A stretch of DNA of 64,000 nt from Candidatus Omnitrophota bacterium (GCA_016190205.1 JACPQZ010000048.1:13943-77942); one strand, 5' to 3'; counted from the stretch's first letter, positions 11,003 through 14,118 are shown. Numbers and translations: made by a program. The notes: a model not told the origin generated them from the letters alone.

Positions 11003-11427
11003 TATATTATTTCAAGGTCCGCAAGGCCGAGAAGGGCTATTGGGGAAATTTTCCTGATCTGGAAGGATCTACGACGCAAGGGGAAACCCTTGAGGAGATC
11101 TTGTCAAACGCCAGGGAAGTGCTGGACCTTGTTTTGGAAACCGACTTTGATTATAAATGCGAAATCCCTCTTCCCAAAAAGTACCACGGCAAAAGCTACC
11201 ACCCCGTCGCGTGCGATCCTACGATAGGTTTTCCCGTGCTCCTTAGAAAAACGCGTCTTGCAAGAAAATGGACACAGAAAGATATGGCCAAAAAACTCGG
11301 GGTGTCTCTATCCGCCTATCAAAGGCTCGAGACCCCCGGGAAGGCAAATCCTACAATAAAAACGTTAGATCGTTTAAACGAGCTCATGCACTTGCCGTTA
11401 TCCTTCCTCTTCGACCAAGCTGCGTAA
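10999..11427 (+). CDS. hicB: Antitoxin HicB with a C-terminal XRE-type HTH
   Basis: HicB/UPF0150 N-terminal domain plus HTH (RLARKWTQKDMAKKLGVSLSAYQRLE). Confidence 0.75.
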   Translation: MIYYFKVRKAEKGYWGNFPDLEGSTTQGETLEEILSNAREVLDLVLETDFDYKCEIPLPKKYHGKSYHPVACDPTIGFPVLLRKTRLARKWTQKDMAKKLGVSLSAYQRLETPGKANPTIKTLDRLNELMHLPLSFLFDQAA

Positions 11428-11460
11428 GTAAGAAGATCATACTCGTTGTTTTTCAGTTTT
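11398..11460 (+). repeat. Left copy of an about 58-bp imperfect direct repeat (the 3' end of hicB) bounding the AT-rich islet.
   Basis: TATCCTTCCTCTTCGACCAAGCTGCGTAAGTAAG...ATACTCGTTG matches 14051-14118. Confidence 0.7.
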
Positions 11461-11521
11461 GTGTTACTTCACATATAGGAGGCATTGGTTATGAGAAATC
11501 TCATGGACAAGGGAGGTTGCA

Positions 11522-11747
11522 TATGATGGTACGCTGGCTTATTGTTGGGGGTCTTGTAGTCATGATTGGGCTGGCCGGGACCGCGGAGGCCAAGACCGTG
11601 CGCGTCAAAGGCGGTATGACCAAGAGCGGCACCTATCGGATGCCCTCAAACCGCACCAGTCCTAACCGTTCGAAACTTGACAATTGGAGCACGAAGGGGA
11701 ACGTCAACCCGATGACGGGTAAAAAGGGAACTCGTAACCCCTGGTAG
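11522..11747 (+). CDS. Small Lys/Thr-rich secreted protein (hypothetical)
   Basis: GGAGG RBS, a signal-peptide-like N-terminus, 75 aa, inside the AT-rich islet. Confidence 0.45.
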
Positions 11748-11865
11748 CCCTGGCTATCGAGCAGCACGGGTTGCACTACATCTGTGGTTGCTACCTGCTC
11801 CAGTGGCGTCGGCTTCGCGAAGAGAATCGGACACGGCTGTGTAAAACTTCTATGAACACAAAGTT

Positions 11866-12414
11866 ATGCTAAATCCAGAGAGAGACCCAATTGTAAATGT
11901 AGTACATGATGGAATAAAAGAGGGTATACGCGTTACTCTAGACAATAAATGTTATCCCTCCACAATTAAATTAGTTCTTTCTGCTATCGATACAATGGCT
12001 TATTTAAAAATGCCAAAGGACAAGGTAGATGTTGAAGCACGCGATTTTGTGGAATGGGTGGACAAATACATCCAGTTTCCTTGTAAAGAGCGTCTAACGG
12101 GTTTGGATTTATATGGGGCTAGATGTGGGATGTTACATAGCCACAAAGCTATTTCGAAAGCGAGCAGGAAAGGCAAATGTCGTATAATTGGATACATGGA
12201 CCACTCAGTTTCTGAGATTAGATGCAACAGAAACGTTGATGCCAACTTTGTTCTTGTCTCCGTAAAAGCACTTGTTGAGGCATTTTTCACAGGGATAGAC
12301 CGGTCTTTAGTTGATATCTATTCCAACAAAAAGAAAGGTGATATTGCAAACGAGCGGTTTAAGGAGATGGTTCACTCATTACCATACAAAACAAGTAAGT
12401 TTACTACCTGCTGA
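11866..12414 (+). CDS. Hypothetical protein (182 aa), low-GC islet cargo
   Basis: Intact ORF in an approximately 38% GC region. No recognizable motif. Confidence 0.5.
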   Translation: MLNPERDPIVNVVHDGIKEGIRVTLDNKCYPSTIKLVLSAIDTMAYLKMPKDKVDVEARDFVEWVDKYIQFPCKERLTGLDLYGARCGMLHSHKAISKASRKGKCRIIGYMDHSVSEIRCNRNVDANFVLVSVKALVEAFFTGIDRSLVDIYSNKKKGDIANERFKEMVHSLPYKTSKFTTC

Positions 12415-12572
12415 AGTTTTTAATGAACTGCTGCACCAACAACGTATATATACCCTGTTCAAAAAGTGCCAGCTTCGCCAAGTAGACCTGGCGTGCACCT
12501 GCCTGATAGCATAAAGAATAAACTATGTATAATAGTATGTACAATAATACGTAAAAGTGGTATACTTTTAAC

Positions 12573-12860
12573 GTGGAGAGACGAGTTGGGAGCTTCGTGT
12601 GGAATGTTCGTAAGGAAGAGGCAAACATTCTCAAACATGGGGTGGATTTTGTCACGGCGTCCCGGGTTTTTCAGGATCCTCGCGCGGTGGTGGCCAAAGA
12701 TGCCAAGCATAGTGTCAAGGAAGAGCGGTACTTTTGTATTGGGGAGGTGGGCGGCAGGATTATAACGGTGCGGTTTACCTATCGCGCTCGGTGCATTCGC
12801 ATTTATGGGGCTGGTTTCTGGCGGAAGGGGGAAAGGTTATATGAGAACGAAAACCGTTGA
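12573..12860 (+). CDS. brnT: Type II toxin BrnT (DUF497 RNase)
   Basis: BrnT-like N-terminus (W-x-x-x-K-x-x-x-N-x-x-KHGV-F). Confidence 0.7.
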   Translation: MERRVGSFVWNVRKEEANILKHGVDFVTASRVFQDPRAVVAKDAKHSVKEERYFCIGEVGGRIITVRFTYRARCIRIYGAGFWRKGERLYENENR

Positions 12861-13080
12861 TCCCAATATGCCCGTAGGAAAGTTAACCAAAATCAAGAAT
12901 TTTCTGCCTCCGCCCGACAAGTTGATCTTCCCGGACGAGCCGGTTAAAGTGACCATGTCTTTAAGCCGGTCCAGCGTCGAGTTTTTCAAATCGCAGGCCA
13001 AACGGAACCGCACCAAATACCAAAAAATGATCCGGGCCCTCTTGGATCTTTATGTACAGCAGCACCTAGCGAGAAGATAG
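12841..13080 (+). CDS. brnA: Antitoxin BrnA (RHH)
   Basis: Overlaps brnT. C-terminal RHH-like region VKVTMSLSRSSVEFFKSQ. Confidence 0.65.
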   Translation: MRTKTVDPNMPVGKLTKIKNFLPPPDKLIFPDEPVKVTMSLSRSSVEFFKSQAKRNRTKYQKMIRALLDLYVQQHLARR

Positions 13081-13192
13081 CGTACTTACCTCTCTATACA
13101 CTCTGCTCTCATAGCGTTATCTTCTGAAAGCGGTTGTGACACGCTTACACGCCAAACTGTAGCCCAATATTTTCACACCGGAGGCCATTGTA

Positions 13193-13593
13193 ATGAAGAA
13201 TGTTATATTTCTAGCTCTAGTATTGTTTTCTCTCAACTTATCCTTGCGGCCTGCCGAATCGGCTGAAGTCGTCACCTTGTGGCGTGGACCTATGATAACC
13301 AGTTCAACAAGATTTATGTCGATGGCGCCCTCGTATTAAACGAGCCCTACACGATACCGTGGACAGGTAACAACCTGGATTTTCAGATCGGCCAGCATCA
13401 ACAGCTCCCTTCCAGCGCCAATTTACGCGGTTTACTGGACGAGGTGCGCGTCTATAGCGGCGCCCAGACGCAGGAAGAGGTTATAGCCGACATGAACCGG
13501 TCTATTTCAGACCAGCTCGTCCCGGAGCCTGCCACCGCGCTTCTTTTCGGAATGGGTCTCGCCGGCTGGGCGGCATTGCGTCGAAGGAAGTAG
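13193..13593 (+). pseudogene. Frameshifted remnant of a PEP-CTERM-anchored secreted protein.
   Basis: The signal peptide (MKNVIFLALVLFSLNLSL) is in one frame and stops at about 13338. The LamG-like fragment ends in a PEP-CTERM signal (VPEPATALLFGMGLAGWAALRRRK) in another frame (13279..13593). Confidence 0.5.
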
Positions 13594-13772
13594 GGGGAAG
13601 CCTAGGTACTGTTTGTATATACTTTTGTATTATGTTATGATAGATACTGATGAAAGGATTTCGCTGGAGTCTGCTCAAGAGTGAGAGGCTAAAAAGGACG
13701 CAATGAAATTTTTCTGAAAACTCTGTTTCCAAGCAGGAAGTTCACAAAGTTGTATCGGACTGGGAATCTCTG

Positions 13773-14024
13773 ATGAGACCATTGAAGCCGAGTCGTTACG
13801 AAAGAGGAATTGAAACGGCGCTGGTGAAGGGTGAGTATATTAACGTGAGCCCTGCAAAATTTCACGCCATTGCCCGGGCGGTTCAGGCGCGCAGAAAAGA
13901 TGCCGTTCTCAATATCCGCGTCAATAGCGCGGATTTAAAAAGCATCAAGATGAAAGCCAGGCGCTTGGGGATTAAGTATCAAAGCTTCATATCGGAGCTT
14001 CTGCACCGAGTGGCGCACAGCTAG
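13773..14024 (+). CDS. Orphan CopG/RHH-type antitoxin-like protein
   Basis: RHH-like C-terminal segment (AVLNIRVNSADLKSIKMKARRLGIKYQSFISELL). No cognate toxin is adjacent. Confidence 0.5.
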   Translation: MRPLKPSRYERGIETALVKGEYINVSPAKFHAIARAVQARRKDAVLNIRVNSADLKSIKMKARRLGIKYQSFISELLHRVAHS

Positions 14025-14050
14025 CTGCTTGTGAGAGCGGCGTGAACCTC

Positions 14051-14118
14051 TATCCTTCCTCTTCGATCGAGCCGCGTAAGTAGGTAAACCGTACTCGTTG
14101 CATTTTTTTCGTTTTTGA
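14051..14118 (+). repeat. Right copy of the direct repeat. It is a duplicated hicB 3' end that would still translate as ...LSFLFDRAA*.
   Basis: Aligned to 11398-11460 at about 85% identity. Confidence 0.7.

Follow-up and report, generated by a model that had tools for sequence, protein, structure and literature searches.

Two copies of a hicB gene end bracket a toxin-antitoxin islet

We analysed a 64,000-nt stretch of DNA from Candidatus Omnitrophota bacterium (GCA_016190205.1, JACPQZ010000048.1:13943-77942; hereafter the window, with positions counted from its first letter), and in it an islet of about 2.6 kb that lies between an intact hicAB operon and a tRNA-fMet gene, flanked by two direct copies of the hicB 3' end (Table 1). 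The islet is an ordinary decaying insertion scar, degenerate and not a working mobile element now, and we tentatively read its right-hand repeat as a tail left behind by a second hicB allele or copy, at a spot where toxin-antitoxin modules accrete and decay. In the operon at its left end the two genes overlap by 4 nt, and HicB matches HicB_lk_antitox with an E value of 1e-5 (26.2 bits, just under the curated 27) and HTH_3 with 3e-11 over residues 82-137. With its HicA domain, DNA-binding HicB and overlapping genes, hicAB is a predicted type II toxin-antitoxin system, and the last nine codons of hicB together with its stop lie inside the left repeat.

Table 1. Features of the islet and its borders, in window positions
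Feature	Position	Strand	Basis and remarks
Promoter-like site 5' of hicA	10785..10813	+	TTGACA-17-TAATAT with TG; 10/12 consensus matches (consensus scan only)
hicA toxin gene, intact, 60 aa	10820..11002	+	Pfam HicA_toxin E 6e-14
hicB antitoxin gene, intact, 142 aa	10999..11427	+	Pfam HicB_lk_antitox and HTH_3
Left repeat	11399..11453	+	hicB codons 134-142, stop, 26 nt of 3' flank; gapped extension to 11460
pep74, small Lys/Arg-rich protein, signal-peptide-like N-terminus	11523..11747	+	phrog_29674 E 3e-15, function unknown; no Pfam or NCBIfam match
orf182	11866..12414	+	no Pfam, NCBIfam or PADLOC match; phrog_12390 and phrog_18591 (function unknown)
brnT toxin gene	12573..12860	+	Pfam BrnT_toxin E 7.5e-20
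brnA antitoxin gene, 79 aa	12841..13080	+	Pfam BrnA_antitoxin E 8e-4, below curated cut-off; overlaps brnT
LamG/PEP-CTERM pseudogene	13193..13593	+	signal-peptide ORF 13193-13339 out of frame with C-terminal ORF 13279-13593
18-codon ORF (MKGFRWSLLKSERLKRTQ*) 5' of the RHH gene	13650..13706	+	translation
Orphan RHH (CopG-antitoxin-type) gene, 83 aa	13773..14024	+	Pfam CopG_antitoxin E 3e-6
Right repeat	14051..14105	+	stranded hicB tail (our tentative reading) and 26 nt of homologous 3' flank; gapped extension to 14115
Split tRNA-fMet	14139..14436	+	exon 1 14139-14172, intron 14173-14396 (224 nt), exon 2 14397-14436
Terminator-like hairpin after the tRNA	14469..14502	+	15-pair stem, then T run (consensus scan)

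The two repeats are identical at 45 of 55 gapless positions (82%), and with one gap the alignment grows to 65 columns (11399-11460 against 14051-14115; 80% identity, blastn E 1e-9). A preliminary description of this DNA, made from the sequence alone, had proposed 58-bp direct repeats here; the alignments lie within the segments it named, 11398-11460 and 14051-14118, and give an identity of 80-82%, and 58 is close enough to the 55 nt of the gapless and the 62-65 nt of the gapped alignment. A degenerate 32-mer of the repeat (TATCCTTCCTCTTCGA…GCGTAAGTA) matches the window exactly twice, where shuffled sequences predict no match. The right copy still encodes the last HicB residues in frame (LSFLFDRAA*), as the same description held, and together with the Pro codon at 14047-14049 it reads PLSFLFDRAA* against PLSFLFDQAA* at the end of hicB; an in-frame stop precedes it and no open reading frame (ORF) with a start codon includes it. 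At the protein level the match starts at P133, one codon before the repeat, which itself starts inside the Leu134 codon, and the two codons at this edge (CCG TTA against CCT CTA) are Pro-Leu in both copies. The left edge of the similarity is sharp, with none detectable between the copies 5' of Pro133. No terminal inverted repeats were found at the islet ends and no arm-type repeats, and the inner ends of the islet share no short motifs beyond chance.

Islet genes and their decay

The genes listed in the preliminary description were recovered as such, with one correction: its PEP-CTERM gene, thought to be frameshifted, is internally deleted. The LamG_3 match is limited to profile positions 85-150 of 151, accompanied by a PEP-CTERM match (Pfam), and because it starts at position 85 we conclude that about 85 residues of LamG, between the signal peptide and the middle of the domain, have been deleted. 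The putative signal peptide of pep74, read by eye, ends …AGTAEA before a K, and relatives of this protein occur on 7 viral contigs. In brnTA an alternative brnT start at 12597 would give a protein of 87 aa, and the brnA call is supported by its position and its overlap with brnT; the order of BrnT then BrnA in overlapping genes marks a second predicted type II toxin-antitoxin system. A consensus scan places a promoter-like site ahead of it at 12538-12566. The spacers 5' of hicA (10788-10809) and brnT (12541-12562) share …AAAAGTGGTA followed by a TA-rich, -10-like hexamer, and the two operons probably have similar extended -10 promoters here.

The ribbon-helix-helix (RHH) gene near the right end encodes a protein that also matches NCBIfam BrnA_antitoxin_add (E 5e-4, below the cut-off), and no partner toxin was found for it. 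The 18-codon ORF ahead of it could be what remains of a lost toxin gene, an idea that we set aside on finding its similarity to the BrnT N-terminus not significant (P 0.07) and no relevant Pfam match. Every ORF between the repeats has been accounted for, with no integrase, transposase, excisionase or relaxase, or remnant of one, among them; nor was an integrase, transposase or intI gene found among 20 further ORFs scanned elsewhere in the window, so that the absence of integrase and transposase noted in the preliminary description holds. The islet DNA has no match among plasmids and phages.

Small, co-oriented and often orphan genes with toxin-antitoxin modules among them, and a repeat that starts at the end of an ORF, are features of integron cassettes, in which case the repeats would be attC sites. 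We give this reading practically no credence, since in secondary structure the repeats on either strand do no better than shuffled sequences (z-scores -0.04 to 0.97, with 0.15 and 0.32 among them), a lack of fold that effectively refutes integron cassettes; moreover there are two copies rather than one per gene, and no intI-like gene among the ORFs scanned. Nearly all real-looking ORFs of at least 180 aa in the window lie on the + strand, which makes the co-orientation of the islet genes uninformative.

An atypical block that extends beyond the repeats

The preliminary description had GC content falling from about 60% to about 40% between the repeats, which the sliding GC and tetranucleotide analysis shows to be overstated. 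GC content averages 56.7% over the window and 47.2% between the repeats, the 2nd percentile of 2.6-kb windows. Values near 40% are confined to orf182 (39%) and two spacers (37-40%), while pep74 (56%) and the PEP-CTERM remnant (53-56%) resemble the host. GC starts to fall before the left repeat, at about 9700-10600, and the trough takes in SPFH (52%), hicA (52%) and hicB (48%); similarly the most atypical 2.6-kb tetranucleotide window of the 64 kb is 10601-13200, hicAB included. GC at third codon positions (GC3) is 0.68-0.79 in core genes, 0.54 in hicA and hicB, 0.57-0.64 in brnT, brnA and the RHH gene and 0.37 in orf182, with pep74 and the PEP-CTERM remnant again host-like at 0.68-0.69. The odd block thus extends from where SPFH ends as far as the tRNA, is heterogeneous and does not have the repeats as its limits, and its mosaic GC3 points to several events, or to a related donor, rather than to a single foreign element.

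Upstream lie ATP synthase genes (the atp operon), purN, eno, divIC and SPFH, and downstream of tRNA-fMet genes for a BaxI-family protein, a peroxiredoxin (Prx) and an FAD oxidoreductase, which supports the view of the segment as accessory DNA in a housekeeping neighbourhood. In the spacer between SPFH and hicA there is a perfect 18-nt tandem duplication (CATGGCACACGTGTACCA twice, centred on CACGTG palindromes; 10658-10693), which could be an operator, or an insertion or slippage scar at the left edge of the atypical block. Farther off in the window, a single + strand ORF of 4,657 aa with internal GC dips occupies 33388-47361, and a 333-aa protein with PIN and TRAM domains is encoded at 62427-63428.

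A near-identical strain and more distant relatives

A contig of a near-identical strain (SRR12113385, 6,260 nt) is 99.92% identical to the window and contains the whole islet. Its five single-nucleotide polymorphisms (SNPs) all fall within 9421-9956, and four of them lie within 26 nt (9421-9446) in divIC, where they change three residues; this cluster looks like a short recombination patch between strains. Exact protein matches come from the same strain only, in three runs of one study, with fragments in two of the runs that stop short of the islet. In a clustering of about 15 billion proteins at 90% identity, ten proteins (the seven from hicA to RHH and three neighbours) are singletons, or are joined by nothing more than alternative gene calls or the near-identical strain's variant. 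No HicB with a …DRAA tail (Q140R, the allele expected at an empty site) is on record among these 15 billion proteins. A search of 5.8 billion clusters gave a closest HicB homologue of 50% identity, whose C-terminus differs. The closest homologues seen in context (44-50%) have unrelated neighbours and lack a tail duplicate.

The lineage does not conserve the gene order around SPFH. In three contexts read for SPFH homologues of 82-88% identity the neighbours differ from those at this locus, and among 160 loci of BaxI relatives (the best 69% identical; GTDB species representatives and JGI metagenomes) none shares another neighbour or the tRNA-fMet. At locus L162 a 204-aa gene with a faint LAGLIDADG_3 match (7120-7734) lies just 5' of an SPFH gene of 84% identity, proximal to dnaA and parAB.

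The same comparison bears on whether the repeats belong to a dispersed family, or are regulatory sites, that have nothing to do with insertion. The 3' part of the right copy does overlap a weak promoter-like stretch before the tRNA (TTGCAT-17-TAAAAT, read by eye and below the scan threshold). However, there are two copies in 64 kb and none elsewhere in 187 related loci fetched, the same-strain contig excepted, nor does the repeat pattern match the viral contigs searched; half of the repeat is coding, with a match at the protein level, and the repeat has no structure of its own. We consider a dispersed family very improbable.

A possible stranded tail of a second hicB

Taken together, the gene content, composition and repeats suggest a patch of about 3.5 kb between SPFH and tRNA-fMet (10.6-14.1 kb) that would have gathered toxin-antitoxin modules and orphan genes of the mobile genome and would be decaying by deletion. 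In the history that we favour, with some reserve, a closely related second hicB would once have stood directly before tRNA-fMet, and what is left of it would be the last 9-11 codons, the stop and some 35-45 nt of 3' flank. Two routes could have led there. DNA of a related strain that carried hicAB and the cargo may have recombined in, anchored on the left by homology in hicAB or its flank and joined illegitimately on the right inside the resident hicB (homology-facilitated illegitimate recombination); or a second copy of hicAB may later have been deleted down to its tail. We infer such a route, which would not need a recombinase encoded by the element. Toxin-antitoxin modules would penalise loss of the region that carries them, and as addiction modules the intact hicAB and brnTA could make the patch costly to lose.

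Several observations argue for this history. The copies differ in the way of diverged homologous gene ends: identity is 26/29 (90%) over the coding part and stop and 19/26 (73%) in the non-coding flank past the stop, and coding differences tend to be synonymous, two of three in the repeat alone (P about 0.13) or four of five with the two extra Pro-Leu codons, chosen after the fact, counted in (P about 0.012). The homology continues past the stop, where an inserting element need not mimic its target, and hicAB itself belongs by composition to the atypical block (GC3 0.54; 10601-13200). The LamG deletion scar and the partnerless RHH gene show decay, and the scar together with the clustered SNPs of the near-identical strain indicates that deletion, and probably homologous exchange, operate here. 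Finally, there is no integrase or transposase in the islet and there are no terminal inverted or arm-type repeats, and as a rare, non-conserved gene whose closest homologue has another C-terminus, hicB would be a poor integrase target.

The same pattern of differences speaks to a duplication of the 55-65 nt hicB end in situ at the moment of insertion, by a long staggered cut or slippage, with the right copy drifting since. That two direct copies exactly flank the inserted DNA is what such an event would leave, yet drift predicts mostly non-synonymous changes (about 23% of random changes are synonymous) against the two of three or four of five seen, and a divergence of 18-20% needs a long time, yet the intact inner genes look functional. 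To our knowledge no insertion mechanism yields target duplications of 55-65 nt, terminal inverted repeats are missing, and we regard this origin as improbable. A target-site duplication by a transposon or insertion sequence was rejected likewise, the repeats being too long and too diverged, with neither terminal inverted repeats nor a transposase present. Of the proposal in the preliminary description, a target duplication produced by site-specific insertion, what stands is an accessory, degenerate and recombinase-free islet bracketed by hicB tails; a literal duplication of the transposition type does not, and a site-specific origin is one of two candidate histories.

Some points weigh against a second hicB. 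With only 9-11 codons surviving, a random endpoint in the 429-nt gene would have had a chance of about 8% of falling so near the stop, and a tail this short is exactly what an integrase that targets gene 3' ends would produce. A spacer of 22 nt is all that separates the remnant from the intact RHH gene, and the deletion must therefore have ended neatly. The synonymous bias rests on five differences. Neither a second hicA nor upstream hicB debris was detected, and no donor or ancestral arrangement can be demonstrated.

A relic of a site-specific integrative element is the other history; the two are comparably likely, this one slightly less so; on its own terms we hold it possible and somewhat doubtful. 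Here an element would have integrated at the hicB 3' end, its integrase and transfer genes being deleted later, in the manner of a cis-mobilizable element (CIME), with the left repeat as attL, containing a replacement tail brought in by the element, and the right repeat as attR with the original tail; such a relic could move only with an integrase from a related element. Direct repeats do bracket accessory, partly low-GC DNA beside a tRNA gene, the left boundary of the similarity is sharp, and the repeat, which sets in nine codons ahead of the stop, makes the antitoxin whole again (its helix-turn-helix reaches residue 137); this is the classical arrangement for targeting of 3' ends. A 16-nt block of perfect identity at the repeat's left edge is a possible crossover core, but in 65 nt that are 80% identical such a run is nothing out of the ordinary (P about 0.4, an estimate), and we rejected it as evidence of one. 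Loss of an integrase is plausible in an islet that decays by deletion, and the definition of a CIME fits formally, with att-like repeats kept at both ends and integration and transfer genes gone; yet the islet contains no remnants that would trace it to an integrative and conjugative element (ICE), an integrative and mobilizable element (IME) or a prophage, and the gene end it occupies is not a conserved one. Integrases typically use conserved genes, whereas the target here would be a rare, non-conserved and compositionally atypical toxin-antitoxin gene, and the adjacent tRNA, the usual kind of target, lies outside the repeat: it starts 23-33 nt beyond the repeat's right end (33 nt from the gapless end), and the repeat contains no tRNA sequence. 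Against this relic also stand the lack of an integrase, excisionase, relaxase or remnant in the islet or among the scanned window ORFs, the lack of arm-type repeats, the similarity that runs into non-coding flank, the mosaic composition of the cargo, and the absence of another copy of site or cargo in viral contigs, plasmids and phages. A gene-tail duplicate beside a tRNA is on its own no proof of site-specific integration.

A bolder version would make the hicB tail a true attachment site, the landing pad in an addiction gene of a minimal integrase-less element that is mobilised in trans by a recombinase elsewhere in Omnitrophota genomes and carries orf182, the founder of a large unannotated family, as a possible new HEPN-like conflict effector. 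This strikes us as unlikely. Were it true, imprecise excision would free the HicA toxin, and if the repeats are att sites the locus would give a rare view of the biology of mobile elements in Omnitrophota, an uncultured phylum for which hardly any have been described, and an example of an element that parasitises the end of a toxin-antitoxin gene. On present evidence the islet is an ordinary decaying accessory patch of modest practical value.

The orf182 family

The islet nevertheless draws attention to orf182, its lowest-GC gene, as a member of a large family with a well-predicted structure and no assigned function that is linked to mobile genomes. Its 124 close matches include none above 61% identity, and the family comprises at least 1630 cluster representatives (50% identity clusters, E ≤ 0.001). 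Family members are solitary genes in varied contexts and occasionally sit on viral contigs, conjugative plasmids and, in one case, a temperate phage; one relative of 462 aa (P0261) is fused to C-terminal leucine-rich repeats. The AlphaFold2 (AF2) model is all-alpha plus a hairpin (mean predicted local distance difference test score, pLDDT, 93.9), and it has no significant match among solved structures and matches two uncharacterised phage proteins. Across the family (P0126-P0405) there are 12 invariant positions, including D42, W64, Y68, R86-C87-x3-H91, R106, S132 and R164, with R86-x4-H91 invariant throughout. RNases of the HEPN type are recognised by an Rx4-6H motif, an all-alpha bundle and similarity in fold to known HEPN domains. 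To HEPN proteins the orf182 matches are weak, which together with the invariant R-x4-H suggests that orf182 may be a HEPN-like RNase or conflict effector.

The tRNA-fMet gene and its intron

The islet was described as lying immediately upstream of tRNA-fMet, and while the adjacency is correct the gene proves to be split by a group I intron. The intron matches Rfam RF00028 over 14163-14369 with 52.1 bits against a gathering score of 50, is ORF-less and is inserted between U33 and C34 at a splice site with U-1 and omega-G. The spliced product of 74 nt folds in ARAGORN as a tRNA-Met(CAT). It has a C1xU72 mismatch, and three G-C pairs close its anticodon stem; since these are hallmarks of initiators we assign it initiator identity. 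A second tRNA with a CAT anticodon, unsplit, lies at 30191-30265, and its G1-C72 pair marks it as an elongator Met or Ile2 type and not an initiator. With default settings ARAGORN calls no tRNA at 14139-14436; default finders thus miss the split gene, and annotation pipelines may report the genome as lacking an initiator tRNA. At a permissive threshold the only Rfam matches between 10.5 and 14.6 kb are the intron itself and, by chance, part of a tmRNA on the T-arm of the tRNA. The classical group I introns of bacterial tRNA-fMet form a class named fMet.2Ug, of subgroup IC3 (10.1101/2020.01.27.920355), and from its insertion site, U-1, omega-G and RF00028 match we place the present intron, as predicted, in that class; it is 224 nt long without an ORF and differs from the class in its host, an Omnitrophota metagenome-assembled genome and not a cyanobacterium.

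Comparison with known systems

Among described systems, CIMEs retain att sites and have lost the genes for integration and transfer (PMC5704250). The islet resembles them in being short and integrase-less, with decayed cargo between direct repeats that keep the 3' end of a gene intact. It differs in having no trace of a parent ICE or IME, in flanking a rare antitoxin gene rather than a conserved gene, in repeats of 80-82% identity whose homology extends into non-coding flank, and in that neither a cognate integrase nor an empty site is known. With the islands that tyrosine recombinases insert beside tRNA genes it shares the position of accessory DNA by a tRNA gene and direct repeats as its bounds; unlike these islands, however, it lies on the 5' side of the tRNA, its repeat contains no tRNA sequence, it has no integrase, and it measures 2.6 kb against 10-200 kb. 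Chromosomal type II toxin-antitoxin clusters, or 'TA graveyards', of the hicAB and brnTA families offer a further parallel, in intact operons with promoter-like sites, an antitoxin gene that lacks its toxin, a piece of another antitoxin gene, atypical composition and a sporadic phyletic distribution. Where the islet departs from such graveyards is that its fragment of a second hicB is a tail duplicate in exact register that brackets the cargo, an arrangement unusual among them.

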